This document shows, piece by piece, positions 6,180 to 34,331 of a stretch of 34,331 nucleotides of DNA. The notes under the pieces are model-generated. The model worked only from the letters and a program-made list of their open reading frames with translations. It was not told the origin of the DNA and did not search any database. This DNA comes from Fibrobacteria bacterium. Its GTDB lineage: Bacteria > Fibrobacterota > Fibrobacteria > UBA11236. The position numbers were made by a program, and so were the translations under genes. The stretch's first letter is position 1, and the number at the start of each line of letters is the position of its first letter. The stretch covers positions 1-34,331 of the forward strand of contig JBGTHM010000105.1 of assembly GCA_041746255.1 (NCBI GenBank), written 5' to 3'.

Positions 6180-6206
6180 ACACTTAAAAAGGAAAGGCAG
6201 GAAAGT

Positions 6207-6716: not shown

Positions 6717-6793
6717 ACCTCGGTATCAGTCAATGAATCCAGCAATAATTCCAAATATTTAAAAGTTAATTAGACTAGAAGGAGTAATCGAAC

Positions 6794-8485: not shown

Positions 8486-8527
8486 TTCGTCTAACGCAAC
8501 CGAAAAGGAAGCAATCGAGGAGTAGTC

Positions 8528-9331
8528 ATGGAAATGGGTTCCCGAGTCTTCCAAGACTTCCGTTCCCTGGTGTATGCCAGGAGCGGAATCGCCTTGGGTG
8601 AAGGCAAAGAGGCTCTGGTCAGCGCGCGCATCGGCAAACGGCTCCGCCATTTGGGACTGGTCGATTTCGACGCGTATTTGGACTGGGTCAAGGGACGTGA
8701 CGGCGAAGAGGAGATGGTGCATTTGCTCGACGCCATTTCCACCAATGTCACCAGCTTTTTCAGGGAGCCTGCGCATTTCGAATTTGTTGCGGAATGTATG
8801 CGAAAGTGGATGGCGACCGGCCAACAACGCTTTCGCTTCTGGTCAGCCGCGTCTTCCACCGGCGAGGAGCCCTATACGCTCGCCATGACCTTGCGCGAGT
8901 CCAAGGAAAACGGCGAGGATATTCGCATATTGGCTACCGACATTTCGACACGGGTGCTGGAGGCCGCCAAACAAGGACGCTACGCGGCGGCAAAATTGCA
9001 ATCGCTTCCGGACGGCTTTGCCAAACGGTATTTCACCAACTTGCACCCGAAAGAGGGGTCAGAGTTCGAAATCAAGGAAGAATTGAAACGCATGGTTCTC
9101 TTCAAGCGGCTCAACCTCGCTTTCCCTCCTTTCCCTATGGCGGGGTCGATGGACATGATCCTCTGCCGCAATGTCATGATTTATTTCGACAATCCCGTGC
9201 GTAAGCGATTATTGGAAGAATTCTACCGCCTATTGAAGCCGGGTGGATACCTCCTGGTCGGGCATTCAGAAAGTCTGACGGGTCTAGCCGGTAAGTTCAA
9301 AACTATTCGGCCCTCCATTTATCTCAAGTAG
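8528..9331 (+). CDS. cheR: Chemoreceptor methyltransferase CheR
   Basis: STNVTSFFRE, WSAASSTGEEPY, ILATDIS, ILCRNVMIYFD, GHSESL. Confidence 0.95.
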   Translation: MEMGSRVFQDFRSLVYARSGIALGEGKEALVSARIGKRLRHLGLVDFDAYLDWVKGRDGEEEMVHLLDAISTNVTSFFREPAHFEFVAECMRKWMATGQQRFRFWSAASSTGEEPYTLAMTLRESKENGEDIRILATDISTRVLEAAKQGRYAAAKLQSLPDGFAKRYFTNLHPKEGSEFEIKEELKRMVLFKRLNLAFPPFPMAGSMDMILCRNVMIYFDNPVRKRLLEEFYRLLKPGGYLLVGHSESLTGLAGKFKTIRPSIYLK

Positions 9332-9336
9332 GGTGC

Positions 9337-9813
9337 ATGAATATCGTAATCGGAATTTCTGAAATGAGGGTTTCGCGCAATCCCGAAGAGGTGTTGGTCA
9401 CTTTCGCATTGGGATCGTGCGTGGGCCTGACGCTTTTCGATCCTTCTACAGGAATTGGGGGGCTCATCCACGCCATGCTCCCGCTTAGTAAAATCGATCC
9501 GGTCAAGGCGGCCAATAACCCTTACATGTTCGTAGATACCGGAGTACCTGCTCTTATGCAGACGCTGTTTGATCTTGGGGCCCAGAAAAAGCACTTGATA
9601 GCCAAGGTCGCGGGAGCATCCACTATCATGGATGACAAAGGAATATTCAACATCGGCGAAAGGAACCATACGGTATTGCGTAAGGTTTTATGGAAAAATA
9701 ATATTCTCATCGCCGGAGAAGACGTAGGGGGCAACTCGCCACGCACGGTTTACCTGCACATGAATACGGGGAAAACCATTTTGAAAATGGCGGGACAGGA
9801 AAGGGAGCTTTAA
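9337..9813 (+). CDS. cheD: Chemoreceptor glutamine deamidase CheD
   Basis: LGSCVG catalytic Cys, GGLIHAMLP, IGERN, EDVGG...R. Confidence 0.92.
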   Translation: MNIVIGISEMRVSRNPEEVLVTFALGSCVGLTLFDPSTGIGGLIHAMLPLSKIDPVKAANNPYMFVDTGVPALMQTLFDLGAQKKHLIAKVAGASTIMDDKGIFNIGERNHTVLRKVLWKNNILIAGEDVGGNSPRTVYLHMNTGKTILKMAGQEREL

Positions 9814-10198
9814 ATGGCCTTTAACATTCTGGTTGTGGACGATTCGGAAACCGTGCGCGCGGTGGTGAAGAAAACCCTGGACATTGCCGGTGTTCCGGTT
9901 AAAACCCTGTTCCAAGCCGAAAATGGCTTGAAGGGATTGGAAATACTACGAACCGAATGGGTGGATTTGGTTTTGGCCGATATCAATATGCCGGTGATGG
10001 GCGGAGTGGCCATGGTCGAAGAAATCAAGTCCGATACCGATTTGGCGGGAATTCCCGTGGTGATTATTTCTACGGAAGGCAGCGCCACGCGCATTCAACA
10101 ATTACGGGATAAAGGCATCAGCGGATTTTTACGTAAACCCTTCACTCCTGAGGATTTGAAAAAATTGGTGGAAGAGCTTTTGGGAAAGGCGGATACGC

Positions 10199-10206
<8 letters not shown>
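9814..10206 (+). CDS. cheY: CheY-like response regulator
   Basis: ILVVDDS, LADINMPVMGG, ISTEG, LRKPFT; position inside the che cluster. Confidence 0.85.
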
Positions 10207-11727
<1,521 letters not shown>

Positions 11728-11797: not shown

Positions 11798-12310
11798 TCA
11801 CTTCTCTTCCGCAGCTTTTCTCCCCCGGCTGACGCCTTTTTCCAAAGCGGATTTTCGGGCTCTGCGAGCCGCAGCCGGAGGCATGGGCAGCATTTCCGTT
11901 GTTCCTTCGCGAATTTGCGCCAAGGTAGTTTTCTCGGCCCATTCCTGGAATTCCTGATTGATGGCGCTCCAACTGTCGTGCATGGGACAGGGATTGGCCG
12001 AATTGCACTTACCCCACCCGAATACGCATTGATTCGGATGGGCGTCATAACCCACCACCGCCAGGATATTCATATAACTGATACGTTTGGCAGGCTTAGC
12101 CAATGCGAATCCACCACCATGTCCCTTGGCGGAGGTAACCAGACCAGCTGAAACCATTTGCCGCATGATTTTCAGCAGGTAATGTACAGGAACGAAGGTT
12201 GCGTCCGAGAGTTCATGTGCGGTAACCGCCTTGCCGGCAGGGAGCAATGCAAGCCAACTCATGGCTCGCAGGGCATATTCGGCGGTATGAGACAAATTGA
12301 TGGAAATCAT
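11798..12310 (-). CDS. Rrf2-family transcriptional regulator with putative Fe-S ligands
   Basis: AEYALRA, winged-helix SAKGHGGGFAL, C-x6-C-x5-C-x2-H (CVFGWGKCNSANPCPMH); divergent from the heme-copper operon. Confidence 0.9.
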   Translation of the reverse strand: MISINLSHTAEYALRAMSWLALLPAGKAVTAHELSDATFVPVHYLLKIMRQMVSAGLVTSAKGHGGGFALAKPAKRISYMNILAVVGYDAHPNQCVFGWGKCNSANPCPMHDSWSAINQEFQEWAEKTTLAQIREGTTEMLPMPPAAARRARKSALEKGVSRGRKAAEEK

Positions 12311-12402: not shown

Positions 12403-12431
12403 TTGAATTAATTCGTATGAGCAGTTAAAAT
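12403..12431 (+). promoter_or_regulatory. Putative sigma70 promoter of the eNOR operon
   Basis: TTGAAT (12403-12408), 17-nt spacer, TAAAAT (12426-12431). Confidence 0.65.
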
Positions 12432-12462
12432 AGATATTATTATCTATGGATATTTTTATCTA
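12431..12462. promoter_or_regulatory. Two abutting 16-bp palindromic operator boxes (putative Rrf2 sites)
   Basis: TAGATA-ttat-TATCTA (12431-12446) and TGGATA-tttt-TATCTA (12447-12462), directly following the -10 element. Confidence 0.7.
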
Positions 12463-12522: not shown

Positions 12523-14025
12523 ATGAAAACCGCAGGCACCGCCCTAGGGCCCATAATCGTTCCCGGACCAACCCGCTCGGAAACGCCTTATCGGCATTCC
12601 CGAACCCAGGTTCAACCGCTGGATAAAAGTTGGATTCAAGGGGTGGCATTGTCCAAAAATTGGTGGGCGCTCTCGATTCTTTCCATGGCTATCGCGGGTT
12701 TTTATGCCCTGGCCCTGGTGCTGGCCCGCATGCCGGGATTGAGTACCCTTATTACCGACCCCCTCTTCTTTAAGCGCTGCCTAGTCGTGCATGTTAACCT
12801 GGCGCTGGGACTTTGGCTGCTCGCATTCCTGGCCGGAATGTCGGAATGGACACATAGGGGAAGCAAAGGCCAATCCAGCAGACGGCTGGGACTGTTTTCC
12901 GCCTCGCTGGGATTAGCCTGCATCATGGCGGCGGCTTTCATTCCGGGAGTCAATCCCGTCCTTTCCAATTATATCCCGGTATTGGATCACCCCCTGTTTT
13001 TCGGCGGATTGTTCCTGGTGGCTGTAGGTCTATTCGGCGCACTTTCCAGAAAATCCTGGAGTCGGGAAACCTGGAAAGCCAATCCCCTCTCCCCGTTCGC
13101 GCCCCTTGCCGCTGCGCGCCCGCTATTGGCAGTGGCCGGAATCGCCTTTGGTTTCTCCCTAATTACTTTGGCCATCGCCTTCTTGGTTGTGAACCGTTCG
13201 CTGGCATCCCAGCCTTATTATGAATTTCTTTTCTGGGGTCCCGGACATTTGCTGCAAGTCACCCACTCGGCTGGAATGATCGCAGCCTGGATTCTGATTA
13301 CGGGCGAGCTGCTGAAAAAATCACCCGTCTCCTTCAAGGTATCCCGAGCCCTGGCGATAATTCTAATCGCTCCCTGGTTGATATCCCCATTTTTCTCCTG
13401 GCAAGGCCCCGCTTCGATTTGGTTTTTATCGGGGTTTACTCAATTGATGCGGTATGCCATTTTCCCCGTTACTCTCGTTTTCATGGTCATGTGTTTGCGC
13501 AGTCTGCTCGTCTTGCGAAGTGACTCGCAGCCGCCGATGACATTCGCTCGCAAGGCGTTATTGAGCGGTTTGCTCTCCAGCTTCGCCCTTACCGCCACCG
13601 GATTCATACTGGGCGCCATGATACGCGGATCCAACACCATGGTTCCCGCACACTACCATGCCGCAGTAGGAGGGGTTACCGTCGCCTATATGACGGCCGC
13701 CTTTTTACTCGCGCAAAAATTCGATTTCCGCAAAGTATCGAGACGCGCGGGAAAATTGTTATCCCGGCAACCTCTCATCTATGGCGTGGGCCAATTGGCG
13801 TTCGCCTTGGGATTCGCCTTCGCCGGTTACCATGGCGCCGCCCGGAAAAGTTACGGACAGGAACAACAAATCAATTCCTTCTCGGAATCCTTCGGATTGG
13901 CCGTCATGGGAGGCGGGGGCCTGCTGGCCATTGTAGGAGGACTCGCCTTCATGGTGCTTTGTTACCGCCTTTATAAAAACCGTACCGACGCGAACCCGAA
14001 CCTGGAGGATATATGGAAAGTGTGA
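12523..14025 (+). CDS. Degenerate heme-copper oxidase subunit I-like membrane protein (function unknown)
   Basis: About 12 hydrophobic helices; VVHVNL (helix II His), LFWGPGHLLQ (helix VI), VPAHYH (helix X HxH), GAARK (cf. GMPRR); no helix-VII HH pair found. Confidence 0.75.
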   Translation: MKTAGTALGPIIVPGPTRSETPYRHSRTQVQPLDKSWIQGVALSKNWWALSILSMAIAGFYALALVLARMPGLSTLITDPLFFKRCLVVHVNLALGLWLLAFLAGMSEWTHRGSKGQSSRRLGLFSASLGLACIMAAAFIPGVNPVLSNYIPVLDHPLFFGGLFLVAVGLFGALSRKSWSRETWKANPLSPFAPLAAARPLLAVAGIAFGFSLITLAIAFLVVNRSLASQPYYEFLFWGPGHLLQVTHSAGMIAAWILITGELLKKSPVSFKVSRALAIILIAPWLISPFFSWQGPASIWFLSGFTQLMRYAIFPVTLVFMVMCLRSLLVLRSDSQPPMTFARKALLSGLLSSFALTATGFILGAMIRGSNTMVPAHYHAAVGGVTVAYMTAAFLLAQKFDFRKVSRRAGKLLSRQPLIYGVGQLAFALGFAFAGYHGAARKSYGQEQQINSFSESFGLAVMGGGGLLAIVGGLAFMVLCYRLYKNRTDANPNLEDIWKV

Positions 14026-14183
14026 AGGAGCCTACGTTGGAGACAACGGATAAACGCATGTTGCAAAGGTTGATGGACAACCCTTGGATCCTGTTGATTC
14101 TAGGATTTCTTATCCCTACCATTTCTTACACCATTTGGGGCTGGGTCGAGTTGTTGCGGGTTCCCGTAGCACCGCTTCCCTAG
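14013..14183 (+). CDS. Small single-TM protein, probable accessory subunit of the heme-copper enzyme
   Basis: Below the ORF-track cutoff. GGAGG RBS (14004-14008), ATG 14013, MESVKEPTLETTDKRMLQRLMDNPWILLILGFLIPTISYTIWGWVELLRVPVAPLP*; the stop overlaps the RBS of subunit II. Confidence 0.8.
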   Translation: MESVKEPTLETTDKRMLQRLMDNPWILLILGFLIPTISYTIWGWVELLRVPVAPLP

Positions 14184-14195
14184 GAGGAAAAAATC

Positions 14196-14720
14196 ATGAG
14201 CATTCAAAGTCCCGCCGCAGGCTGGTTCAAAGCGCCGACAGGTTCGGAAAGGTTATGGATAGGCATCGCCCTGGCCTGGTGCCTGGTCATGTTTTTCATG
14301 ATGCCGTTCTGGCATTTCAAGGGAAAGCAGAACAGCACGGGCGAAGCCTATAAGGTGGCGCCGGCGAAATTCGCGGAGCGGACCTTCGCCTTCGCGGAAT
14401 CCAACAAAGTAGGCGAAGAAAACGGCATACCCATCGTCGAGCCCTTTCCCGGCGGCGACGCCTATTTGCTGGGAAGGATGTGGAGCTGGTATCCCATTCT
14501 CAAGCTGAAAAAGGATCAAACCTATCGAGTGCATATCTCCTCGACGGATTTGCAGCACGGTTTCTCCTTATTGCCCATGAACATGAATTTTCAAATCCTG
14601 CCGGGATACGATCACGTTCTCACCTTGACACCCACCCAAACCGGAACCTTTTCCATCGTCTGCAATGAGTTTTGCGGCATCGGACATCATTTGATGACCG
14701 GTAAAATCATTGTTGAATAG
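14196..14720 (+). CDS. Heme-copper oxidoreductase subunit II (CuA), B-family/eNOR type
   Basis: Single TM; CuA ligands DLQHGF...CNEFCGIGHHLM. Confidence 0.93.
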   Translation: MSIQSPAAGWFKAPTGSERLWIGIALAWCLVMFFMMPFWHFKGKQNSTGEAYKVAPAKFAERTFAFAESNKVGEENGIPIVEPFPGGDAYLLGRMWSWYPILKLKKDQTYRVHISSTDLQHGFSLLPMNMNFQILPGYDHVLTLTPTQTGTFSIVCNEFCGIGHHLMTGKIIVE

Positions 14721-14731
14721 GAGACATAGCC

Positions 14732-16447
14732 ATGGTAGTCCCAAGCCCCGAAAAACAAAGAATCTGCAGCACCTATTCCCTGCCCATCTGCCTCAACGCG
14801 CAATTCTTCATCAAGTTGAATGCGGTTCTGGCGGTGGTCTCCATCCTGATCGGCGCCGTAGGAGGTCTGCTCGTGGGCCTGACGCGCTGGTCGGCTGTCC
14901 ACCTGCTCGACCCGACCTGGTATTACCGCCTGCTTACCCTGCACGGCCTCAATATGCTCATCTACTGGATCATATTCATGGAGATAGCCATTCTCTATTT
15001 CGCCGGCACCACCCTGCTTAAGACTAAATTGTTCTCCACCAAACTGGCCTGGACGTCCTTCGTCCTCATGGTCGCCGGAGCGGTGCTGACCAATTACGTA
15101 ATCCTGCAAGGCAAGGCCGACGTTTTATTGACTTCCTACGTTCCGCTCAAGGCCACGCCCAACTTCTACCTGGGTATCATACTTTTCGCGGTCGGGGCGC
15201 TGGTGGGAGTCATCAATTTTTTCGGATGCGTCTACCAGGCGCGTAAGGCCAAAAGTTACGGGGAAACCATGCCCCTGGTGGCTTTCGGAGCCGTAGCCGC
15301 CGCCATCATCGCGGTGCTGGCCCTGGTACACGGCGCGGTTACCCTGGTTCCCACCTGGCTCTGGTCGCTGGGGCTCATCGACTACATCGATCCCATGTGG
15401 TATCGCGTCACCTGGTGGGCGCTCGGCCACACTTCACAACAAATCAACGTTTGCGCCATGGTTTCCGTCTGGTATCTCATGGCCACGCTCACCACGGGCG
15501 CCCGTCCGCTCAACGAAGCCGTCAGCCGCGGAGCCTTCGTTCTCTACATCCTCTTCATCAATCTCGCCTCGGCGCATCACCTGTTGGTCGATCCCGGCGT
15601 GGGCGCGGGATGGAAGATCTGGAACACCTCCTACGCCATGTATCTGGCCGTGCTGGCCTCCCTGATCCACGGGTTCACCATTCCCGCCTCGGTGGAATCC
15701 GCCATGCGGGCGCGCGGTTTAGGCAAGGGCCTCTTCAGCTGGCTCACAGCGGCCCCTTGGCGCGATCCCGGGTTTTCCGCCTTCTTCCTATCGCTGGTGA
15801 TTTTCGGATTCATAGGAGGAATCACAGGCGTTACCCTGGGAACCCAGCAAATCAATATTCTCGCCCACAACACCCTGCGCATACCTGGGCATTTCCACGC
15901 CACGGTTGCGGGAGGGACATCGCTGGCCTTCATGGGGCTTACCTATTACGTGGTACCCTTAATCTTCCAACGGGATTTCCGTTTCCGACTATTGGCGCGT
16001 ATCCAACCCTATATATTCGCCACCGGCATCGTCGTCATGTCGATGGGCATGTCTTTCGCAGGGTCATACGGCGTACCTCGCCGCCATTGGGACGCTGAAT
16101 TCACCGGCGCCGCGATCAAGGCCGGATTCGACTCCGGTGCGCATTTAATGCTCACGGTCTTGGGCCTGGGCGCGACGCTCACGTTCATCGGCGTCATCAC
16201 CTATGTGTTCTTGACGGTGACTGCGGTATTTTTCGGCCCTTCCAATAAGGGACGTCCCATGCTGAGCTGGCAAGGGAAAACCGAAGATGCGGAATTGAAG
16301 TCCATACTGTCCGGCACATTCGATTCCAAGCGTTTCAAACACCGGGTACCCGGCACCGTCACCTTGGTAGTGGTGCTGCTGATATCCTTCATCGTCTATT
16401 ACTTCGCGAATTGGCTGGCGCTTACCGACGTCTGGCCCGTCCGCTAA
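14732..16447 (+). CDS. Heme-copper superfamily subunit I, eNOR-type nitric oxide reductase
   Basis: All six His ligands present (LTLHG; WALGH; SAHH; GHFH), but helix VI reads GHTSQQIN rather than GHPxVY, i.e. Gln at the cross-linked Tyr position, the eNOR signature. Confidence 0.85.
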   Translation: MVVPSPEKQRICSTYSLPICLNAQFFIKLNAVLAVVSILIGAVGGLLVGLTRWSAVHLLDPTWYYRLLTLHGLNMLIYWIIFMEIAILYFAGTTLLKTKLFSTKLAWTSFVLMVAGAVLTNYVILQGKADVLLTSYVPLKATPNFYLGIILFAVGALVGVINFFGCVYQARKAKSYGETMPLVAFGAVAAAIIAVLALVHGAVTLVPTWLWSLGLIDYIDPMWYRVTWWALGHTSQQINVCAMVSVWYLMATLTTGARPLNEAVSRGAFVLYILFINLASAHHLLVDPGVGAGWKIWNTSYAMYLAVLASLIHGFTIPASVESAMRARGLGKGLFSWLTAAPWRDPGFSAFFLSLVIFGFIGGITGVTLGTQQINILAHNTLRIPGHFHATVAGGTSLAFMGLTYYVVPLIFQRDFRFRLLARIQPYIFATGIVVMSMGMSFAGSYGVPRRHWDAEFTGAAIKAGFDSGAHLMLTVLGLGATLTFIGVITYVFLTVTAVFFGPSNKGRPMLSWQGKTEDAELKSILSGTFDSKRFKHRVPGTVTLVVVLLISFIVYYFANWLALTDVWPVR

Positions 16448-16457
16448 GGAGGTTGTC

Positions 16458-17435
16458 GTGAAAATCGTTTATCCAAAGCCTATTCCGCTCCGCATACCCG
16501 TTGGGTTTCAGTCCCACATGGCGGCGTTTATCTTGAGTCTGCTGGTGGTATTCGATGGCTTCCTCGTGCTGACAATGGTAATGGAGCCGGCGGAACCCGC
16601 TTTGTCGGGGTTCCTCCGCGACTTCCGCGTCTGGTGCCTGAGAGCCGACCCGGCAACGGGACGGTTCGACTGGTTCTATCCGGCCATCATCCTGGGAGAA
16701 TCGCTGCTATTAGGCGGTATTATCCTGGCTATCTGGGGTAACAGCCTGAAGTTCAGCTTCGGCGGAAGAATGCGTTCCTTACTACCCCATGTGGTACTAT
16801 CCTTCATGGTGGTTTCGGGAAGCGCTTACGCTTCGCTTTTCGTCTTCGCTGAAGACATGCAAACGGGCTCTTTGGATTTCCCAGCCCAGGAACTCCGCAC
16901 TTCGATTCCGGCGCCGGAATTTTCCTTGATAGACCAGAACGGCGAAGCGGTTACGGATAAGGATCTAGCCGGAGGCGTAACCGTACTGACCTCCTTCTAT
17001 GCCCATTGCGTACATACCTGCCCCCTCATCTTCACGCAAATACGCAAAGTAATGGATAAGCTGGATCCCGCCTCAACCGACAAACTTCGCATCGTGGCGG
17101 TGAGCATGGATCCGGTCCGGGATACCCCTGAGATATTACGAATGGCCGCCGATTTGCATAAAATGGACGCGCCGTTGTATCGACTCGCCACCGGAGATCC
17201 CGAAGCCGTGGAAATTTTGCTCGACCGCATGGGCATTCAACGGGAAAGAAATTTGGAAACCGACGATATCGCGCATAACAATCTCTTTCTGCTGGTGGAT
17301 GGAAACGGGCGCATCGCCTACCGTTTTTCTCTGGGAGAATTGCAAGAAGACTGGATGGTAAGCGGGTTGCAAACCCTCCTGAAGGAACTGCCCCAGGGCG
17401 ATCGGCGCGCGGAGGTGGTGGTTGCAGTGCCATGA
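16458..17435 (+). CDS. Sco/SenC-family copper chaperone with N-terminal multi-TM extension
   Basis: APEFSLIDQNG, FYAHCVHTCP (CxxxC), SMDPVRDT, IAHNN. Confidence 0.88.
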   Translation: MKIVYPKPIPLRIPVGFQSHMAAFILSLLVVFDGFLVLTMVMEPAEPALSGFLRDFRVWCLRADPATGRFDWFYPAIILGESLLLGGIILAIWGNSLKFSFGGRMRSLLPHVVLSFMVVSGSAYASLFVFAEDMQTGSLDFPAQELRTSIPAPEFSLIDQNGEAVTDKDLAGGVTVLTSFYAHCVHTCPLIFTQIRKVMDKLDPASTDKLRIVAVSMDPVRDTPEILRMAADLHKMDAPLYRLATGDPEAVEILLDRMGIQRERNLETDDIAHNNLFLLVDGNGRIAYRFSLGELQEDWMVSGLQTLLKELPQGDRRAEVVVAVP

Positions 17436-19453
17436 ACCGCTCGACTCCGCATGCCCTCTACCTCCGGCTTAGTGGGATCGCCGATAAACGGCTGGGAGTC
17501 CAAAACAATTTCTTATCCCAAACCGGCGCATTAGCCAATTTTTTCTTTCTCATCGCTCTGGTAACCGGAATCCTCCTGCTGTTCTGGTATCGCCCCAGCC
17601 TGCACGCCGCCCATGCTTCCATGCTGGCTATGGAAGCCAATCGGTATCTTGCCGGATTCCTGCGTACGCTCCATCGCTACAGTTCGGACGCATGCATGCT
17701 TTTCGTTATGCTACACGCGCTGGAAGCTTTGATAGCCGGACATTTCGACAAGCCCCGCTGGTTGGCATGGGGAACCGGATTCCTGCTCACCATCGCCCTC
17801 TGGTTCGAAGGTTGGCTCGGCTATTGGCTGGTATGGGACGAACCGGCGCGCCTGGTCGCCGTGGTGTCGGCCCAAGTGTTGGACTATCTCCCCATTTTCG
17901 CCGATCCCATCTCCCGCGCCTTTCTGGTACCCGACACCCTTAATTCGTTGTTTTTTTTCGTGGTGTTCTTCATACACATGCTTATTCCGCTGGCCTTCGC
18001 CATCGGCCTATGGTTACATATCTCCAAATTCAACCGCGCGGCTTTTCTTCCCGGAAAATCGCTCTCGCTGGCCTCGCTGGCGGCAGTGTCGGCGCTGTCC
18101 TTGATATTACCCGCAAGGGCCGGAGCGGCTGCGGATTTACTGAACATGGCGCCGGTTCTCTCCTTGGATTTGTTTTACCTGCTGCCGTTACGGTTTTCCC
18201 AAATCATGAATCCGTGGGTCTGGGCGGTTTTTGCGACTGTCCTTATCCTGCTCATGGCTTTACCGTTCATGCGACGTCAAGCCGGCAAACGTCCACACGT
18301 GACCCCCGAGCGTTGCAACTCCTGCACCCAATGTTATGAAGACTGTCCGTATAACGCCATCACCATGACCACGGACGAGCAGGGCCGGGTCAAGGCCCTC
18401 ATCAGCGAGCCCGACTGCGTGAGTTGCGGGGCGTGCGTGGGATCGTGCAATTCCAAGGCCATTGATTTTCCGGGTTACTCGGCTGACCTGGCCCAAAAGC
18501 GCATCCGGGAATGGTATGCCGCAAGTTCTCCGGCGTTACCTTTGGCTTTCCTATGCGACAAAGCTTTCGCAGGCAACCTGGAGGTGGACGCCGCGACGGG
18601 AATTTCGCCGCAACTGCGCGGTTATAAGGTGGTAACCATGCCTTGCACGAGTTGGCTCAATCCCCTCATGTTGGAATTCGCGGGCAAGTCGGGCGCCCCG
18701 GGAATTTTGGTGGGTGGCTGCGGTACGCTTAATGCCGGCAATAGGCTGGGAACTTTTTTAACCGGGGAAAGAATCGCCGGAAACCGTGAACCCAAACTAC
18801 GCCGGGAGAAGCTGGGGTCAGCGCCATTGCGCTATTTGCATTTTTCTCCGCTGGAAGGGCAGGATTTTATCAACCAGGCGAACCGCTTCCATTCCGATCT
18901 CGGCGCCTCACCCGTATCGGCGGTTACGCGGGAAGTGAAGTCCGGATATCGTCAATACGCAGGTACCGTTTTTACGGGGTTGCTGATATTCCTTTTTCTG
19001 TTGGCGGGGATTTATCTGGGCGAGAGCCGGGAATTCATGGCAGGGGATCCGCAAGCAACGGAGTTGGTCATCTCCCTGAAACACGGGGGCCTCTTCGTCG
19101 ATTCCAAGGTAACGCCCGAGGAAAAATCCCAACAGGAGGAGCTCTTGCCGCATATGCGCGGCGCGGCCTCCGGTGGCAAGCGGGAGCGCATGCCAGTGCG
19201 CATGCAAGTGTTGGTGGATGGAGAAACGAAGCTGGAGAAATCTTACCGCGCAGGCGGATTGTTCCGGGATGGCGAGAGCGTGGCCATGGAAAGGCTGGCT
19301 TTGTTGCCTGGAAAATATCGGGTGGAAGTGCGCATCGCGGATGGAACCAATGCGAATACCTGGCGATTCACCCAAGACCGTACGGTCGAATTCACAGGTG
19401 GCCGTCGCAAGGTGGTGTTTTTCGAGAGCGAGGGAGGTTTCCGATGGTATTGA
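17432..19453 (+). CDS. Fusion of cytochrome b (b6-like), 2x[4Fe-4S] ferredoxin, MvhD/FlpD-like domain and C-terminal TM plus soluble domain
   Basis: Four heme-b His (RTLHRY, MLHAL, FIHML, WLHIS), GWLGYWLVWD; CNSCTQCYEDCP and CVSCGACVGSC; LAFLC, MPCTSW, LVGGC. Confidence 0.8.
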   Translation: MNRSTPHALYLRLSGIADKRLGVQNNFLSQTGALANFFFLIALVTGILLLFWYRPSLHAAHASMLAMEANRYLAGFLRTLHRYSSDACMLFVMLHALEALIAGHFDKPRWLAWGTGFLLTIALWFEGWLGYWLVWDEPARLVAVVSAQVLDYLPIFADPISRAFLVPDTLNSLFFFVVFFIHMLIPLAFAIGLWLHISKFNRAAFLPGKSLSLASLAAVSALSLILPARAGAAADLLNMAPVLSLDLFYLLPLRFSQIMNPWVWAVFATVLILLMALPFMRRQAGKRPHVTPERCNSCTQCYEDCPYNAITMTTDEQGRVKALISEPDCVSCGACVGSCNSKAIDFPGYSADLAQKRIREWYAASSPALPLAFLCDKAFAGNLEVDAATGISPQLRGYKVVTMPCTSWLNPLMLEFAGKSGAPGILVGGCGTLNAGNRLGTFLTGERIAGNREPKLRREKLGSAPLRYLHFSPLEGQDFINQANRFHSDLGASPVSAVTREVKSGYRQYAGTVFTGLLIFLFLLAGIYLGESREFMAGDPQATELVISLKHGGLFVDSKVTPEEKSQQEELLPHMRGAASGGKRERMPVRMQVLVDGETKLEKSYRAGGLFRDGESVAMERLALLPGKYRVEVRIADGTNANTWRFTQDRTVEFTGGRRKVVFFESEGGFRWY

Positions 19454-20301
19454 AGGATTGCATCCTATTGACCAAGCCGATAATTTCCCTATTATCGGGA
19501 ATCTGCGCCGTAACGGGATACCTGCTTGCCGATACCCAGGCGTCTTGGCTGTCTTTAGCTTTAGCCTTTGCGGGCGCGGCGCTGGCGGTGGCCGCCGCTT
19601 CCATACTCAATATGGTGATGGAACGCGACACGGATGCGCGCATGTTACGGACCCACAAGCGGCCTTTGGCCGACGGTCGGTTGCAACCTTTTCAGGCGCT
19701 CGCCTTGGGCATTGCCGCCGCCCTCTCGGGTCTGGCCCTATTGGCGAGTTTATCCTGGACAGCGTTTTGGCTGACGGCCGTCAGCCTCTTTCTATATGAT
19801 TTCGTCTATACTCCTCTCAAGCGCAGAACCCCGTATGCTTTTTTGGTGGGCATCATTCCCGGCGCCGCTCCCCCCCTGATCGGCTGGTCGGCCGCCACGG
19901 GTACCCTGACCGGCGGAGGCTTAGGGTTTTTCATACTGTTTCTGATTTGGCAAATACCGCATATCCTTGCGATATACATCTATCTGGGCGCGGACTATCA
20001 TCGCGCCGGTATTCCGGTACTCCCCGATAGAATGGGATTGGGGAAAGTATTATGGATTTCCCTGGCCTTCTCAACGGCATTGCTGGGTTTGAGCGTGGTA
20101 TTCGCCTGGAGATATATTCCCCATGCGGGCGCGTTGGTCGTGGCGGTAATGGCCGGCGCTTGGCTGCTTTACAGGAACGCGCAATGCCTATGGTCTCTTG
20201 ACTTGGAGGGATGGGCCAAATCCTTTATGCGCTCCACCCTCATCTATTTGTCATTGCTGGTGGCGTCGCTTACGCTATTTCTGGGAACGAGCCGCTGGTA
20301 G
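19444..20301 (+). CDS. ctaB: Protoheme IX farnesyltransferase (heme o synthase)
   Basis: LTKP, NMVMERDTDARMLRTHKRPLADG, YTPLKRRT, GAAPPLIGW, WQIPH, DYHRAGIPVLP. Confidence 0.95.
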   Translation: MVLKDCILLTKPIISLLSGICAVTGYLLADTQASWLSLALAFAGAALAVAAASILNMVMERDTDARMLRTHKRPLADGRLQPFQALALGIAAALSGLALLASLSWTAFWLTAVSLFLYDFVYTPLKRRTPYAFLVGIIPGAAPPLIGWSAATGTLTGGGLGFFILFLIWQIPHILAIYIYLGADYHRAGIPVLPDRMGLGKVLWISLAFSTALLGLSVVFAWRYIPHAGALVVAVMAGAWLLYRNAQCLWSLDLEGWAKSFMRSTLIYLSLLVASLTLFLGTSRW

Positions 20302-25653: not shown

Positions 25654-25923
25654 CCCCTTTATTCATTTTTTCTTAAAGGCTCGCCATATATTCGCTAAGT
25701 GAATATGTGATCACTTACTTTACTCTACTAACTTTTTTTAGGATTCCACCGCTCAACCTCTCCAAATAATGGCCTGGGAATTGCTCTCCCTATTACCAGC
25801 CGGAGGTAAAACCCGATTCGCATGTTTCCGGACTACCCACCCGAAAGAAATGTGACAAAAAGGGATACACCCCTGCCGATTAGACAAAACATCCGCAATT
25901 CACCTGCGGAAAAGGAGACTTTT

Positions 25924-26355: not shown

Positions 26356-26358
26356 TCC

Positions 26359-28461: not shown

Positions 28462-29856
28462 ATGCAAGACCCGAACTTAGTAAAACCGGACTGGAATATC
28501 GATACCGAAATCGAAGTGCTGGAGCGATACGATCGCCAGGTTCCCAGATACACCTCTTATCCACCCATCAATTTTTTCACCTCCGAATTTTCGGACGAAA
28601 CCTACCGGGATAACCTCATCGCTTCGAATCAAAACGGTCCCCGAAACCTCTCCTTTTATTTTCATGTGCCTTTCTGTCCCAAGCGCTGCCTGTTCTGCGG
28701 TTGCACAACCTATATCGCCCAGCCGGGATCGGTGATTTCCGATTACCTCACCTCCTTGAACGTCGAAATGGACATGGTCCTTCCCCTCATCGACTCCGAC
28801 CGTAAAGTCACGCAAATCCATTTCGGAGGCGGAACGCCCAATGCAGCCCCCTTGCACCGCATTACCGCCTTGGTGGATCGACTACGAAAATCCTTCGTCT
28901 TTGCACCGGAAGCCGAAATCGCGATGGAATGCGACCCCAACCTCATCCTACCCGCGCATTTGACGAAATTACGAGAAGCGGGTTTTACTCGGCTTTCTTT
29001 CGGCATCCAGGATGTGCGCGCAGACGTGCTGGAAAGCGTCAACCGTAAGCCGTCGCGTATGCCTCCGCAGGAATTGATTTCCCGTTGCCGCGACTTGGGA
29101 TTCCGGGGGCTCAATCTCGACCTTATCTGCGGACTTCCCTACCAGACGCCCACGACCTTTCTGGAAACGGTGGAAACCATTATCGGCGCCGATCCCGATC
29201 GGATATCCGTCTTCAGCTACGCGCATGTGCCCTGGATGATGGAGCATCAACGTAAACTGGAAAACCACCCCATGCCCACCGCGAAAGAACGCGCGCGCAT
29301 GACCCTGGAAAGCCGACGGTTATTGGAATCCGCGGGATTCGTTCCCATCGGGCTCGACCATTTCGTCAAAGCCGACGACGAATTGGCCACGGCGCAAAAG
29401 CTGGGAAAACTGCATCGCAACTTTCAAGGTTATTGCTCGAAACGCAACACCGGACAGGTTTATTCCTTCGGCGCCAGCGCGATATCGCAATTCGAGCATG
29501 GCTACGGACAGAATTTCAAGGAACTCGCACCCTATCAAGCCGCCATCGCAAAGGGGCGTCTTCCCGTCGAACGCGTGTATGCCATGACACCGAGGGACAG
29601 GGCGGTTCGCGACATCATCAATGCCTTGATGTGCTATGGAGAATTGGACACCTCCGCCCTGGGCGATGAACAAGAGGCAGCCGATGCGGCCAAAAGCCCC
29701 GATTGGATTGCCTTCCAGCAGGACGGATTGATTGAATGCACCCCCGAAAAGGTAAAAGTTACCGCAAGGGGCCGCCTGGCCTTGCGTCTTATCGCTTCGA
29801 CCTTCGATCCCCTGTTGCAAAAGGAGGCTGCCAACCGATATTCACGTTCCCTTTGA
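28462..29856 (+). CDS. hemN: Oxygen-independent coproporphyrinogen III oxidase
   Basis: PRYTSYP, YFHVPFCPKRCLFCGC, HFGGGTP, GLDHF, LHRNFQGY; start either 28462 or 28435. Confidence 0.93.
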   Translation: MQDPNLVKPDWNIDTEIEVLERYDRQVPRYTSYPPINFFTSEFSDETYRDNLIASNQNGPRNLSFYFHVPFCPKRCLFCGCTTYIAQPGSVISDYLTSLNVEMDMVLPLIDSDRKVTQIHFGGGTPNAAPLHRITALVDRLRKSFVFAPEAEIAMECDPNLILPAHLTKLREAGFTRLSFGIQDVRADVLESVNRKPSRMPPQELISRCRDLGFRGLNLDLICGLPYQTPTTFLETVETIIGADPDRISVFSYAHVPWMMEHQRKLENHPMPTAKERARMTLESRRLLESAGFVPIGLDHFVKADDELATAQKLGKLHRNFQGYCSKRNTGQVYSFGASAISQFEHGYGQNFKELAPYQAAIAKGRLPVERVYAMTPRDRAVRDIINALMCYGELDTSALGDEQEAADAAKSPDWIAFQQDGLIECTPEKVKVTARGRLALRLIASTFDPLLQKEAANRYSRSL

Positions 29857-29882
29857 ATCACAAAACCACCCTGGAGCAGAAA

Positions 29883-30602
29883 ATGGAAACCTTGACCCTG
29901 AAAACCACAGTCGGCGAAATCGTGACGAGGAGACCCTCGTTATCACGAGTCTTCGAAAAATTGCATATCGATTATTGCTGCGGGGGAAAAATTTCTCTGG
30001 AAGAAAGCTGCCGCAAAAAGAAACTGGACCCCCAAACGGTGTTGGCCATGCTGGAAGCGGTGGAATCCGAAATCGAAGCAGGCATTCCCGAAATCGACGC
30101 GGCGTCCCTCACCCTGACCGATCTGGTCGACCACATCGAATCGACCCACCATCGTTATTTGTGGGAGGAGATGCCGAGATTGGGCGCCCTGGTCGAAAAG
30201 GTCGCGCGCGTACATGGAGCTCACGATTCCCGTCTCCTCCAAGTCTTGGAAACCTATTCAGACCTGGTCGAAGAACTGGATCTCCACATGCAAAAAGAGG
30301 AAAGGGTGCTATTCCCGTTGATACGGAGTCTGCAAAACGGTGGATCGGCCGCCTCATCCCACTGCGGTTCCGCGGCGAATCCCATTCGCCAGATGCGGAT
30401 GGAACATGAACAGGCGGGCGAAGCGCTCGAAAAGCTCAGGGAGCTTACCGACGATTATACGCCTCCCGACTGGGCTTGCAATTCCTATCGGGCCATGCTC
30501 GACGCCCTGGCCTATTTCGAACAGGATTTGCATAAACATGTGCATAAGGAAAATAACATTCTCTTTCCCCGCGCCTTGGAGCAGGAAACTTCCTGCTGTT
30601 AG
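29883..30602 (+). CDS. ric: Iron-sulfur cluster repair di-iron protein (Ric/YtfE/ScdA)
   Basis: IDYCCGG, STHHRYL, HMQKEE..LFP, MRMEH, HVHKENNILFP; GGAG RBS before ATG 29883. Confidence 0.95.
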   Translation: METLTLKTTVGEIVTRRPSLSRVFEKLHIDYCCGGKISLEESCRKKKLDPQTVLAMLEAVESEIEAGIPEIDAASLTLTDLVDHIESTHHRYLWEEMPRLGALVEKVARVHGAHDSRLLQVLETYSDLVEELDLHMQKEERVLFPLIRSLQNGGSAASSHCGSAANPIRQMRMEHEQAGEALEKLRELTDDYTPPDWACNSYRAMLDALAYFEQDLHKHVHKENNILFPRALEQETSCC

Positions 30603-31157: not shown

Positions 31158-32369
31158 CTAGGATCGGGGAAGCGGGCGACGTAAGACCAAAGGCAGGAAT
31201 ATCGCCGACCAAACCCAGAGGGCGGCCAGGACAAAAAAAGAGGCGCAGGCCAAGTGAAGTAAATACGCGCCGGGCCATATTTCCGTGGATACCCGGGATG
31301 ACGCACCCATGACCATAAGGATTGCAAGTGTCAAGGACCAGCGTCGATGGGCGGAAAGGATGCCGACATTGCCACCATGCGCGGCTATCACGCGCGAGGC
31401 CACGGCGATGGTTATCAACAAAAATCCGGGAATGAAAATAATATGCTGCCAAGCCATGACGTATTGCGGAAATACTATCGGCAAAGCCAGACCCGCGAGA
31501 ATGGAAACCAAAGCTATACGGATGAAGTTGAGGTAGTATTCCAGTCCCGAAGCCTTCCAAATCGGAAGTTGCGCAAGCAACAAAACCCCGATCGCCAGGC
31601 GCATTCCATATCCCAAGCGGATTCCCAGTTCGCTATTTACCTCTTTCGCAACGCACGCCTCCACGAAATAACTGAGAAAGATTCCCAAACCTGCGAGCAG
31701 GATGGGCCATTGGGTGGAAAATCCGGATTTCAGACCGGCTAAACTTTGGGGTGATACTTCCAGTTTCGCGAAAAGCTTGGGAAAAAGAAATCCCCCGACT
31801 CCCAGAATCAGCAATAGCAAAAAACCTTGATGCAACAGTCCTCGACCCAAAAGCACCAGATGTGGAGGTGTCTTACCCAACAGGCCCTCTAATTCCAGGC
31901 TGCCGCCGACCAATCCCGCAAGCAAGGCGAAAGCGATAAAAATGAATTGAGGTGGCGGGTTCCGGTTTCGCCGCGGGAGCCTGGGCAATGCGAAAATCAG
32001 AAAATTGACGAGCAGCACCAGGTATACGGCCATTCCCGCCACGAGCTGCCCCATGGCGCCAAGTATCGACAAGGCGGACAAACCCAGGGTGAACAGCGCC
32101 AGTTGAAATTTCCCGATGGAAGGAAGCCCCAGGGCATTCGGGAGCATCGTCAACAGGAATCCGAATACGAAGCATAACATCGCGCTTTGCATCTGTATCA
32201 TGGCATGCGCTCGACCCGGATAAGCAAACTCGGGCCAGAAATAAAAAAGGATCCAGATTCCCAACCCTACATGGGTGATAAGAATTCCTAGTGGGAAAAG
32301 GAGCCGATAAGGCTCTTTGCAAAGTTGCGTCATATTTGGATTCCAGATTGGCTGTATCAGGACATTCAC
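31158..32369 (-). CDS. nnrS: NnrS-family membrane protein (NO stress)
   Basis: EPYRLLFPLG, HA...FGFLLTMLP, QHIIFIPG, RVIAAHGG; about 12 TM; last gene of the nirK operon, GTGA overlap with the upstream stop. Confidence 0.75.
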   Translation of the reverse strand: MNVLIQPIWNPNMTQLCKEPYRLLFPLGILITHVGLGIWILFYFWPEFAYPGRAHAMIQMQSAMLCFVFGFLLTMLPNALGLPSIGKFQLALFTLGLSALSILGAMGQLVAGMAVYLVLLVNFLIFALPRLPRRNRNPPPQFIFIAFALLAGLVGGSLELEGLLGKTPPHLVLLGRGLLHQGFLLLLILGVGGFLFPKLFAKLEVSPQSLAGLKSGFSTQWPILLAGLGIFLSYFVEACVAKEVNSELGIRLGYGMRLAIGVLLLAQLPIWKASGLEYYLNFIRIALVSILAGLALPIVFPQYVMAWQHIIFIPGFLLITIAVASRVIAAHGGNVGILSAHRRWSLTLAILMVMGASSRVSTEIWPGAYLLHLACASFFVLAALWVWSAIFLPLVLRRPLPRS

Positions 32370-32986
32370 TTGCCGAGAAGCTTGACAATTCGCTCGATCA
32401 TCGGCTTCGGCTCGTTATTCATGCCGGTTTGCTGATGCCTGACGGTTCCCTCACGATCAAGCAATGTAATGAGATTACTGTGGGCGTACTGCTCCCTTTC
32501 ATCCTCCCGGTAATTGAATCCCAAAACGGCCGCGAGTTCACGCACATTGTCCGCACCGCCGGTCAACAAGGTCCAACCGGATCCCTTCAGCTGCATTTTA
32601 TCCCGATAGGCGCGCAAGGCCTCGACCGAATCGCGTTCCGGATCCATGGTGATCAAAACAAAGCGGGTCGATTTCCGATGCTTTTTCGGCAACCCGCTCT
32701 CAATTTTACGCATATCGTTGACGATCATGGGGCAGGCGAATTCACAATGGGTGAACATAAGCGCCAATACCACCGGACTCCCCTGCAAAGTGCCCAGTTT
32801 GAAGGTTTTGCCCTCGTCCGTGGTCCATTCCGAGGAAAGATGGAACAAAGAATTTCCGGGTACCTCCACCTGTAGAGATTTAACCTCGTCGGCATAGGCT
32901 CTCAATTGCAAATACCCGATGCATAAAACGCCGATGGTAATGACTAAAGCCATACTCAGGCATTCGAGGAACAGATTCTTTTTCAT
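32366..32986 (-). CDS. Sco/SenC-family copper chaperone
   Basis: FTHCEFACP (CxxxC), TMDPERDS, YAHSNLITLLD; ATG 32986 overlaps the upstream stop (ATGA) and has a GGAGG RBS. Confidence 0.9.
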   Translation of the reverse strand: MKKNLFLECLSMALVITIGVLCIGYLQLRAYADEVKSLQVEVPGNSLFHLSSEWTTDEGKTFKLGTLQGSPVVLALMFTHCEFACPMIVNDMRKIESGLPKKHRKSTRFVLITMDPERDSVEALRAYRDKMQLKGSGWTLLTGGADNVRELAAVLGFNYREDEREQYAHSNLITLLDREGTVRHQQTGMNNEPKPMIERIVKLLGK

Positions 32987-33780
32987 GGCATATCCTCCGC
33001 ACAGCGAAAACCAAGATTCTTGACGCAATAGGCGGCCTTCAAACTGCTGCGAATGGCGAATCGCATGAACCCGGCATAATCGGCCGGGTCGGACGCTTTG
33101 AAAGCTCCACTGCCGCAAAACATTCCTTGATCCAACGCGGCATCACCGCGCGATTCCCCGGAAACCAGGGCTGAATTGAAATCCAAGGTCCATTCCCACA
33201 CCAGGCCGAGCATGTCGTGAATTTCCAACGCATTGGGCTTACCCTTTCCCACATCCCCCAATGCGGAACCACCCGGACGCGCATACCAATCCAGAATACC
33301 TTTAACGGCTGCCGCCGAATCGCCGGGATTAAGTTCCGCGGCAGCCCGCTCCCACTCGTTAAGACGGGGAAGTCTTTTTCCCTGGGCTTCGCAATAGGCT
33401 CTGGCTGCGAACCAGGATACGCTGGTAACCGGACTTTGCAAACCCAATGTTCCCGGATCGTTATCACCGGCCCAATCCCGAAGGTAGGCGGTGTCGGCAA
33501 ACAGAGTTTTAACTCGGGATCGGCTCCATTCGGAATGCCGTTTCACAAAACCCAGGTACTCCCCGACGGTTACCGGATACTTATCCAGGAAAAAAGCCGG
33601 CACTTTATCGGGCTTGTCCCCTTTGGATTTGGGATAAAGGGCAAGATATTCGCCCTCAGGAACAAAAACCATTCCGGATGGTGGTGAACCCGCCTGGGCC
33701 CGAACCAGCAAACTGCCCAGAATGAGGCCGGCCAGTGCCGCCCTCATTCCCAATCGCCGTGTGATTTTTCCCTTGAGCAT
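32983..33780 (-). CDS. nirV: FGE-sulfatase-fold exported protein, NirV-like
   Basis: Signal peptide; PVTSVSWFAARAYC...GKRLP...EWE, DMLGLVWEW, LGFRC; directly downstream of nirK. Confidence 0.75.
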   Translation of the reverse strand: MLKGKITRRLGMRAALAGLILGSLLVRAQAGSPPSGMVFVPEGEYLALYPKSKGDKPDKVPAFFLDKYPVTVGEYLGFVKRHSEWSRSRVKTLFADTAYLRDWAGDNDPGTLGLQSPVTSVSWFAARAYCEAQGKRLPRLNEWERAAAELNPGDSAAAVKGILDWYARPGGSALGDVGKGKPNALEIHDMLGLVWEWTLDFNSALVSGESRGDAALDQGMFCGSGAFKASDPADYAGFMRFAIRSSLKAAYCVKNLGFRCAEDMP

Positions 33781-33806: not shown

Positions 33807-34331
33807 TTAATCCCGAAGTTTTTTGACCTCGTCCGCGATAACCGCATCGCCCTTATTGCCCCAGCTGTTGCGCACATAGGTGAGAACGCTGGCCACGTCC
33901 AGATCATTCAGTTTTATCACCGGCATGACGCTATTGTAGTGTTCGCCGTTGACGATGATGGGACCTTCCAATCCATGCAGAATGGTTTTGATGGAGCGCG
34001 CTTTATCTTCCATCAGATAATCGGCTTTGGCCAGGGGCGGAAAAGCGCCCTTAATACCTTCTCCGTTGGGTTGGTGGCAAGCGGCGCAGTTTTGCGTATA
34101 AACATCTTTTCCGCGCTCCATCATTTGGGCGGTGTTCATAGTGGTAGGAAGGCTCACCGTCTCTGCTTTGGGCATGGATTGGGTGCCTCCGCCTTCCGCC
34201 AAATAGACCATATCATGTTGTTTTCCTGAATAAACCACCTTATCCTCAGGTCCTTCCACTTTTATCATTCCCAACGCTCCCTTGTTGAAAGCGCGGAAAA
34301 TGGAATGATCCACCAGGATAAGCGTGCCGGG
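33807..34331 (-). CDS. nirK: Copper-containing nitrite reductase with fused C-terminal cytochrome c (5' part outside the window)
   Basis: Frame open to the window edge; PGTLILVDHSIFRAFNKGALG is the AniA/NirK-type C-terminal Cu-ligand motif, followed by a linker and CAACH...FPPLA...MP class I cytochrome c. Confidence 0.88.
   Translation of the reverse strand, partial: PGTLILVDHSIFRAFNKGALGMIKVEGPEDKVVYSGKQHDMVYLAEGGGTQSMPKAETVSLPTTMNTAQMMERGKDVYTQNCAACHQPNGEGIKGAFPPLAKADYLMEDKARSIKTILHGLEGPIIVNGEHYNSVMPVIKLNDLDVASVLTYVRNSWGNKGDAVIADEVKKLRD

Follow-up and report, generated by a model that had tools for sequence, protein, structure and literature searches.

The locus described here raises the question of whether a gene pair that looks like a ba3-type oxidase reduces oxygen or nitric oxide (NO). 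The pair lies at positions 14,196–16,447 of a 34,331-nucleotide stretch of DNA from a Fibrobacteria bacterium (contig JBGTHM010000105.1, assembly GCA_041746255.1), the whole of which we call the window. An initial annotation, made from the letters alone, took the pair for an eNOR-type NO reductase, and our analysis leads to the same assignment: the two genes very probably code for the core pair of subunits of an eNOR-family NO reductase, a haem-copper branch derived from B-type (ba3-like) oxidases. The assignment draws on sequence features, family placement and synteny, and the substrate, metal, proton path and regulation proposed below are read from these. The eNOR family was reportedly predicted in 2008, as later papers cite, and a member was assayed in 2024. 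The window pair is therefore a new member of a known family, not a new kind of enzyme.

The catalytic pair and its active site

14196..14720, + strand: predicted eNOR subunit II, 174 aa, with one transmembrane (TM) helix, a CuA cupredoxin domain and Glu18 at the putative K-channel entrance (Pfam COX2, E 2.9e-06)
14732..16447, + strand: predicted eNOR subunit I, catalytic, 571 aa (Pfam COX1, E 4.7e-66)
15425..15448, + strand: active-site motif GHTSQQIN of subunit I, with His233 as metal ligand and Gln237 in the place of the cross-linked Tyr

Subunit II has a single N-terminal hydrophobic helix and carries the motif CNEFCGIGHHLM. Among 72 aligned sequences, at least 97% keep its CuA ligands (His121, Cys156, Cys160, His164 and Met167). 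Together with the Pfam COX2 match, the single helix and the complete CuA motif bear out the first description of this partner as a one-TM CuA subunit II.

The best solved relatives of subunit I are the Thermus thermophilus ba3 subunit I chains (HMMER, E about 1e-46, residues 24–489). In the alignment to ba3 subunit I, His233 falls on the first CuB His, His282/283 on the HH pair and His387/389 on the two haem His, with His71 as the sixth His ligand. Gln237 falls on the cross-linked Tyr237, and further matches are Tyr248 on Tyr248, Ser310 on Ser309 and His313 on Thr312. In a 26-sequence subunit I alignment with a mean column identity of 75% (A1), the invariant positions include His71, His233, Gln236, Gln237, Tyr248, His282, His283, Ser310, His313, His387 and His389. 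The six His ligands that the initial annotation had noted beside GHTSQQIN thus both align to those of ba3 and are invariant among relatives. A word-indexed homologue search scored 8000 candidates, all at E ≤0.001. Among the best 120 of these, the 119 non-self proteins are 64–74% identical to the window protein, and GHxxQQ with a Tyr at +15 is found in all 120, the window's own included. The GHTSQQ reading is therefore not a matter of chance.

The window protein thus reads GHTSQQ where ba3-type O2 reductases have the helix VI Tyr (GHPxVY). An identity as a norB-type cNOR or qNOR is not indicated either, since none of the 22 solved-structure matches at E ≤0.001 is a NOR or NorB and the partner of subunit I is a CuA protein; all 22 go by the name of cytochrome c oxidase subunit 1 or COX1. 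Among NCBIfam models none comes near its cut-off for subunit I, the top one (CtaD_CoxA) scoring 76.6 bits against a cut-off of 670, so routine annotation hides such proteins. Annotation routinely labels eNOR genes as subunits of cytochrome c or cbb3 oxidases. Genomes that carry them are therefore counted as NOR-less aerobic respirers, and the capacity to form nitrous oxide (N2O) is underestimated. The warning that surveys would overlook this NO reductase consequently holds, and it is already in print (Murali et al. 2024; Schwartz et al. 2022; and a preprint on Ferrigenium straubiae, bioRxiv 10.64898/2026.01.22.701106, the accessible text of which makes the same "hiding in plain sight" argument). 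The window is therefore a further example and not a discovery.

The exchange of Tyr for Gln is a published diagnostic of the family. In the accessible text of Schwartz et al. 2022 (PMC8756737), eNOR is recognised by Gln at the Tyr site, sNOR by Asn, and cNOR and qNOR by Glu. The accessible parts of Murali et al. 2024 (PMC11214002), to which all mentions of that paper refer, describe a purified eNOR from Rhodothermus marinus that reduced NO and did not reduce O2, several donors having been tried. Dataset S1 of the same paper assigns Q245, Y256, S318, H321 and E-(II)21 to the K-channel of the R. marinus enzyme, and Table 1 counts eNOR in 547 GTDB genomes together with 2,709 IMG metagenome hits. 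Like the window pair, the enzyme of R. marinus DSM 4252 has Gln for the cross-linked Tyr, a CuA subunit II, and the K-channel Tyr, Ser and His plus the subunit II Glu at identical spacing: Q237, Y248, S310 and H313 of the window equal the tabulated R. marinus numbers minus a constant 8, and Glu18 of subunit II, invariant among the aligned sequences, is the counterpart of E-II-21. Rhodothermales relatives are 63–67% identical to the window subunit I. Murali et al. 2024 also report haem As and many eNOR operons with CtaA; unlike these operons, the window has CtaB only.

Like the window pair, the T. thermophilus ba3 oxidase (PDB 1EHK, 3S8F and others) has a core of twelve helices with six His ligands and a CuA subunit II of one helix, and its operon, too, encodes a small extra subunit with a single helix. 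The changes from ba3 to the window protein are Tyr237 to Gln, Val236 to Gln, Thr312 to His and Tyr244 to Val. Two further families, bNOR (qCuANOR) and sNOR, resemble the window pair in their B-family descent, a cupredoxin subunit II and the loss of the active-site Tyr, but carry Asn in place of the Tyr (Dataset S1) where the window has Gln (Murali et al. 2024, PMC11214002).

In the mechanism that we propose, a periplasmic cytochrome c, possibly the NirK-fused cytochrome c domain described below, would reduce CuA of subunit II. Electrons would then pass via the low-spin haem (His71/His389) to the high-spin haem (His387) and the non-haem metal (His233/His282/His283), where two NO would be converted to N2O. 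Gln237 would stand in place of the redox-active Tyr required for O2 reduction. Protons would probably come from the cytoplasm through a K-channel analogue formed by subunit II Glu18, Tyr248, His313 and Ser310; with proton entry from that side, the reaction would be electrogenic.

Family placement and the missing tyrosine

An exhaustive search of 50%-identity representatives gave 1256 proteins at E ≤0.001, of which 162 lie at E ≤1e-30, and 150 were listed. Among 149 new identifiers, the 34 of at least 440 aa were taken for tree building and the other 115, which are fragments, were dropped; P0122, P0127, P0230 and P0245 were also dropped as truncated, garbled or ligand-poor. The sequences fall into five active-site classes: Gln-Gln, Gln-Tyr, Val-Tyr (the canonical GHPxVY), a class with Tyr at two ligand positions, and one without the HH pair. 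In a 46-row IQ-TREE phylogeny all 12 Gln-Gln rows, the window included, form one clade (100/99) and the Val-Tyr rows another (100/100). In a 35-row tree, to which named proteins from plasmid records were added, all 15 Gln-Gln rows are again united (100/100), while the 16 Val-Tyr rows make up the opposite clade (100/100), including a Natrialba magadii protein annotated as a b(o/a)3-type oxidase. Members of the Gln-Gln clade come from Thermomicrobium roseum, a Thermus thermophilus plasmid and a Defluviimonas plasmid, and the haloarchaeal P0123 is another.

The phylogeny proposed as a check by the initial annotation thus puts the window protein into a Gln clade with full support and separates it from the Tyr-bearing B-family sequences, from whose 16-row Val-Tyr clade it is split at 100/100. 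A Gln-only clade in two trees and K-channel residues at the R. marinus spacing together support the eNOR identity. Dataset S8 of Murali et al. 2024 (PMC11214002) ties several genomes to the family, scoring T. roseum and the two species of the placeholder genus SKRC01 as ENOR=1 and MES10 as ENOR=2. The SKRC01 and MES10 rows have nirK and nosZ and, within that dataset, no other NOR.

The nearest Tyr-bearing relatives of eNOR are P0125, P0126, P0128 and P0142, which read GHxxQY and have Gln236, Asn239, Tyr272, His313 and Glu84 in common with eNOR. Two of the four come from Hodarchaeales and Thermoproteota metagenome-assembled genomes (MAGs). The GHxxQY proteins may resemble the oxidase ancestral to eNOR. 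Elsewhere among the matches, P0165, P0171, P0178, P0212, P0257 and P0269 form a well-supported group resembling haem-copper oxidases (HCOs) with the motif FHxxHY, in which Tyr replaces one His of the HH pair and the high-spin haem His.

Loss of the helix VI Tyr would still be compatible with O2 reduction if another Tyr supplied the fourth electron, making the window protein a B-family O2 reductase after all. A helix VII Tyr has that role in cbb3 oxidases, and the window protein offers two candidates, Tyr301 on helix VIII and Tyr272 on helix VII. In favour of this idea, a comparison of the three active-site classes shows Tyr301 to be invariant in and specific to the Gln clade (14/14 Gln-Gln rows, 0/4 Gln-Tyr, 0/15 Val-Tyr). 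All six metal ligands and the K-channel analogue are retained, and ba3 oxidases are the closest solved structures. Tyr272, on the other hand, is present in all 14 Gln-Gln rows and also in all four of the Tyr237-bearing Gln-Tyr sisters; it is therefore older than the loss of Tyr237 and not a replacement for it. Further positions specific to the Gln-Gln clade are Ile276, Asn277, Ser280, Ala281, Asn298 and Ala306. Four of these (277, 280, 281 and 298) contact the small subunit in the complex model presented below, which suggests that they would face outward and not toward the active site. The genes nearby are related to NO, not to aerobic life, and the R. marinus eNOR did not reduce O2, the authors stating that models of the Tyr-less families have no migrated Tyr (Murali et al. 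2024, PMC11214002, accessible parts). We consider an O2 reductase with a displaced Tyr highly improbable.

Several points nevertheless weigh against the eNOR assignment. The activity of the window protein is extrapolated from one assayed relative, the R. marinus eNOR, which is separated from the window by relatives of the 62–72% class; its sequence lies outside the trees and was compared through tabulated residue numbers. What counters a functional Tyr from another helix (Tyr301) is a published statement and an assay. Eleven eNOR references of Dataset S4 also lie outside both trees, where genome rows of Dataset S8 serve as anchors, with locus L028 linked to SKRC01 by accession prefix and L024 to MES10 by isolate name. 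None of the Dataset S4 references was met in cluster look-ups or among the accessions in the accessible part of Schwartz et al. 2022, and the plasmid collection yielded no R. marinus or Accumulibacter record. Within the 34-kb window there is no norB, nosZ or nitrate reductase gene, and nirK is represented by a 3' fragment only. COX15/CtaA is found in none of 30 window open reading frames (ORFs) and in none of 55 flank ORFs from five related loci; these 55 belong to 91 ORFs listed for eight loci, with L014, L034 and L053 left out and L024, L040 and L016 covered partially.

A conserved module around the core genes

12523..14025, + strand: divergent HCO subunit-I paralogue, 500 aa (Pfam COX1, E 3.1e-10; no NCBIfam match)
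14013..14183, + strand: 56-aa single-helix ORF, candidate small third eNOR subunit in a ba3 subunit-IIa-like position
16458..17435, + strand: membrane-anchored SCO1/SenC copper chaperone with Cys184-x3-Cys188 and His273 (Pfam SCO1-SenC, E 5e-23)
17432..19453, + strand: 673-aa fusion protein in which a di-haem cytochrome b is joined to two [4Fe-4S] motifs, an FlpD/MvhD-like domain, a further TM helix and a C-terminal domain (Pfam Cytochrome_B, Fer4 families, FlpD)
19444..20301, + strand: haem O synthase, CtaB/CyoE-like (Pfam UbiA, E 1.6e-49)

In species-representative genomes, 566 stretches were found to encode a relative, of which the best 80, at 62–72% identity, were kept. All 80 are MAG or metagenome records, and their gene order was determined by tblastn with the window proteins. 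Their labels include Leptospiraceae, Myxococcota, Rhodothermales, Balneolaceae, Planctomycetota, Verrucomicrobiota and Calditrichota. The small ORF, the HCO paralogue and the cytochrome b/FeS fusion are conserved over at least eight labels of phylum level among these loci. The gene order is Rrf2 regulator, HCO paralogue, 56-aa ORF, subunit II, subunit I, SCO and cytochrome b/FeS/FlpD fusion, often with haem O synthase. In the five loci whose flanks were scanned, the genes outside the module are unrelated housekeeping genes. Internal stop codons occur in aligned homologues of the paralogue in L008 and L024 and of the SCO gene in L018, L023, L038, L047 and L055. In these MAG contigs they could reflect decay, assembly error or recoding.

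The eNOR operon of F. straubiae is a close published counterpart. As far as the accessible text of the preprint goes (10.64898/2026.01.22.701106), it holds, like the window, eNOR II, eNOR I, haem O synthase, sco1 and cytochrome b/[Fe-S] genes, and also a "scaffold protein of unknown function", which may correspond to the HCO paralogue, to the small ORF or to neither; its transcripts peak under denitrifying Fe(II) oxidation. There the cytochrome b/FeS genes are deemed "rather unusual", whereas in the window clade the fusion follows SCO in all 72 assessable loci. What our analysis adds is modest: that SCO and the cytochrome b fusion are linked to eNOR almost without exception in this clade, a His-poor paralogue and a conserved small subunit. 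These three additions were not found described in the literature as far as it was accessible; the SI Appendix and figures of Murali et al. 2024 and the supplements of the Ferrigenium preprint may cover some of them. Literature searches on HCO subunit I homologues missing His ligands gave nothing on the paralogue family, and those on eNOR with subunit IIa nothing relevant; on eNOR operons with sco1, the relevant papers were the Ferrigenium preprint and Schwartz et al. 2022. We put forward tentatively, and with more doubt than confidence, the broader idea that eNOR in most lineages is more than a two-subunit enzyme and forms the centre of a conserved module of seven genes, three parts of which are undescribed in the accessible literature, namely the small protein, the HCO paralogue and the cytochrome b fusion. 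These three proteins would be candidates for roles in eNOR assembly, electron supply and low-oxygen maturation.

In 68 of the 72 loci that include the subunit II start, fewer than 120 nt separate subunit II from the end of an upstream homologue of the small ORF, and the consensus of these sequences (A4) reads KHPLQRLMDNPWLLLxLGxxIPxLSYTxWGWIEL...LP. The motif recurs in Defluviimonas, Thermus and Thermomicrobium, where small proteins annotated as hypothetical precede subunit II, and is absent from the small protein beside the Natrialba ba3-type genes. Membership in CoxIIa or another Pfam family was considered and gave nothing meaningful, the best match being DsbD_TM with 5 of 25 members at E 0.0074. 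A three-chain model of subunit I, subunit II and the small protein (A1, A3, A4) scored 0.94, compared to 0.36 for the best of three controls, a mark that 116 of 157 solved complexes attained, as did 2 of 215 mismatched pairs. At least 94% of the contacts are shared between runs, and the predicted local distance difference test (pLDDT) value of the partner is at least 78. The model supports docking of the small protein on eNOR subunits I and II; its pass may mirror likeness to ba3, because ba3 with subunit IIa has already been solved. The 56-aa one-helix protein is probably a third subunit in the mechanism that we propose. As part of the module idea, a one-helix protein of 40–56 aa would be present across the Gln clade and, going by the model, would dock on helices V–VIII of subunit I; it may co-vary with Asn277, Ser280, Ala281 and Asn298.

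The paralogue directly upstream is related to subunit I, as hhalign matches the two over 430 columns with 99.8% probability (E 6.5e-30). Both haem His sets are kept, with His90 as ligand of the low-spin haem and with His377 and His379, and so is the first metal His (His242); Arg441-Lys442 stands at the propionate-binding Arg-Arg position. Its HH region is deleted or replaced, so that two of the three metal His are gone. An AlphaFold2 model has the twelve-helix oxidase fold (pLDDT 86.6, predicted template modelling score 0.88), and Foldseek gives TM-scores of 0.57–0.72 to cbb3, bo3 and ba3. Relatives of the paralogue are 31–41% identical to the window copy (A2), compared to 62–72% for the eNOR subunits of the same loci, and its rate of evolution is about double that of eNOR subunit I. 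The 46-row tree joins the paralogue to four further proteins without the HH pair, on a branch that is long and has full support. A homologue search yielded 728 proteins at E ≤0.001, and atlas look-ups for the paralogue and for the cytochrome b fusion returned only same-domain clusters with generic names.

The paralogue lies directly upstream of eNOR in 61 of the 67 assessable loci; it is absent from six that have sufficient upstream DNA, and 13 were not assessable. Five of the six absences are Rhodothermales/Bacteroidota loci (L007, L012, L022, L029 and L062), which differ from the window in this respect. Since R. marinus-type loci do without it, the paralogue is not needed for eNOR catalysis. 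Within the module idea, this member of a fast-evolving HCO branch could bind NO through haem only or deliver haem to eNOR, and need not be a dead copy. The module in our proposed reading holds this haem-binding protein and the cytochrome b/FeS/FlpD membrane protein as well.

Dataset S8 of Murali et al. 2024 (PMC11214002) gives ENOR=2 for Fodinibius halophilus, F. saliphilus and MES10, and F. halophilus also encodes a His-poor paralogue (P0298). That the ENOR=2 counts of Fodinibius and MES10 arise from counting the paralogue as a second eNOR is unsupported, as the SKRC01 rows read ENOR=1 although L028 has both genes, which speaks against a systematic double count. The second count may stand for the paralogue or for a genuine further eNOR.

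SCO is found in all 77 assessable loci with its Cys/His motif conserved, and presumably serves CuA assembly by loading the CuA site of subunit II, while CtaB would supply haem O or derivatives. The haem O synthase scores 196 bits with TIGR01473, against a cut-off of 210, and lies near the cluster in 27 of the 80 loci. The cytochrome b fusion has conserved His81/95/182/196 and eight plus three Cys; its C-terminal domain carries a conserved His574-Met575. Within the module idea, this cytochrome b/[4Fe-4S]/MvhD-like fusion would join the quinone pool to a cytoplasmic redox step. Known haem A synthesis requires O2. As no haem A synthase was found in the window or in the scanned flank ORFs, a bolder reading is that under scarce oxygen the fusion aids cofactor maturation or feeds eNOR with electrons by another, quinol-linked route.

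ORF 26359–27330 was considered as a CtaA and rejected, being a signal-peptide beta-barrel-like protein. It belongs to a pair at 25822–27330 (+), in which a YtkA-like protein is followed by this 323-aa product, and the same pair stands directly after the eNOR-cluster CtaB in L005 (6024–7290), which suggests a link to copper supply. On the T. roseum plasmid (L083, 9817–11619), the "haem o synthase" after subunit I is 1803 nt long, about twice the usual length, and is possibly a fusion with another haem-modifying domain.

Regulation and the NO-related neighbourhood

11798..12310, − strand: Rrf2-family regulator, NsrR/IscR-like with three Cys, divergent from the cluster (Pfam Rrf2, E 9.2e-29)
12429..12448, no strand: candidate Rrf2 operator AATAGAT-ATTATT-ATCTATG, an inverted repeat and variant of AATRGAC-N6-GTCYATT
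29736..30602, + strand: ScdA/RIC-type di-iron protein for iron-centre repair (Pfam Hemerythrin and ScdA_N)
31158..32369, − strand: NnrS haem-copper membrane protein, associated with NO stress (Pfam NnrS, E 2.1e-18)
32366..33118, − strand: second SCO1/SenC copper chaperone
32983..33780, − strand: NirV-like FGE-sulfatase family protein, downstream of nirK (Pfam FGE-sulfatase, E 6.7e-31)
33807..34331, − strand: 3' end of a nirK–cytochrome c fusion gene, cut by the window end (TIGR02376 positions 286–322 of 326, E 7.8e-07, plus cytochrome c)

The Rrf2 protein passes the NCBIfam rrf2_super model and reaches E 1.4e-12 with the NsrR model, under its cut-off. A homologue is found in 35 of the 80 loci, mostly divergent and directly upstream. 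The palindrome AATRGAC-N6-GTCYATT, with at most two mismatches, occurs in 22 of 31 intergenic regions next to a divergent Rrf2 gene, compared to 1 of 620 shuffles. With a 7-nt spacer the consensus behaves like shuffles, which makes the 6-nt spacer the real register. Judged from these sequences the palindrome is a probable Rrf2 operator. It is conserved across phyla (L007, L026, L062 and others), sometimes as two copies 33 bp apart. The copy in the window has three mismatches to the consensus, a number found exactly in 10 of the 620 shuffles as well, and six other window sites equal it. It abuts a promoter-like site at 12403–12431 with a weak consensus match, to which we give little weight because the scan found nine such sites compared to 5.0 ± 2.6 in shuffles. 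Expression of the cluster would probably be under the divergent regulator, and we infer that this control responds to NO.

The initial annotation had further proposed that, with nirK in the same window, the organism can take nitrite through NO to N2O. The 3' end of the gene is indeed present, at 33807–34331 on the − strand; of the copper domain, however, only the end is there, as the first 37 residues of the NirK piece, and the rest is the cytochrome c domain. Full NirK homologues with two Cu-oxidase domains and a C-terminal cytochrome c, 46–54% identical, lie beside the eNOR cluster in 5 of the 80 loci, and in all five an FGE-sulfatase (NirV-like) gene follows. In the window, the nirK piece is likewise succeeded by genes for the NirV-like protein, an SCO protein and NnrS, and beyond these by genes for CopD, ScdA/RIC, two radical SAM proteins and the YtkA-like protein with its beta-barrel-like neighbour. 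ORF 967–1866(−), Arg/Ser-rich and without a family, looks spurious.

Reduction of NO could also serve as protection from stress under an NO-sensing repressor, instead of energy-conserving denitrification, in a host that need not denitrify. Genes such as nnrS and scdA/RIC are typical of nitrosative-stress regulons, and both are in the window; the divergent Rrf2 regulator with its conserved palindrome fits the same picture, and the module flanks vary between phyla, as for a mobile accessory trait. Detoxification is also raised in the accessible text of the Ferrigenium preprint (10.64898/2026.01.22.701106). Against this stand the nirK–cytochrome c gene 14 kb off, whose homologues adjoin the cluster in 5 of the 80 loci, and a conserved complete K-channel analogue, which would be hard to explain without a bioenergetic role. 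Dataset S8 genomes with the cluster moreover have nirK and nosZ and no other NOR in that dataset (Murali et al. 2024, PMC11214002). Stress protection as the purpose of the enzyme therefore appears unlikely to us. Directly upstream of the Rrf2 gene, window positions 3483–11727 (+) hold a complete chemotaxis operon (CheA, CheW, MCP, CheR, CheD, CheY-like, CheX and CheB).

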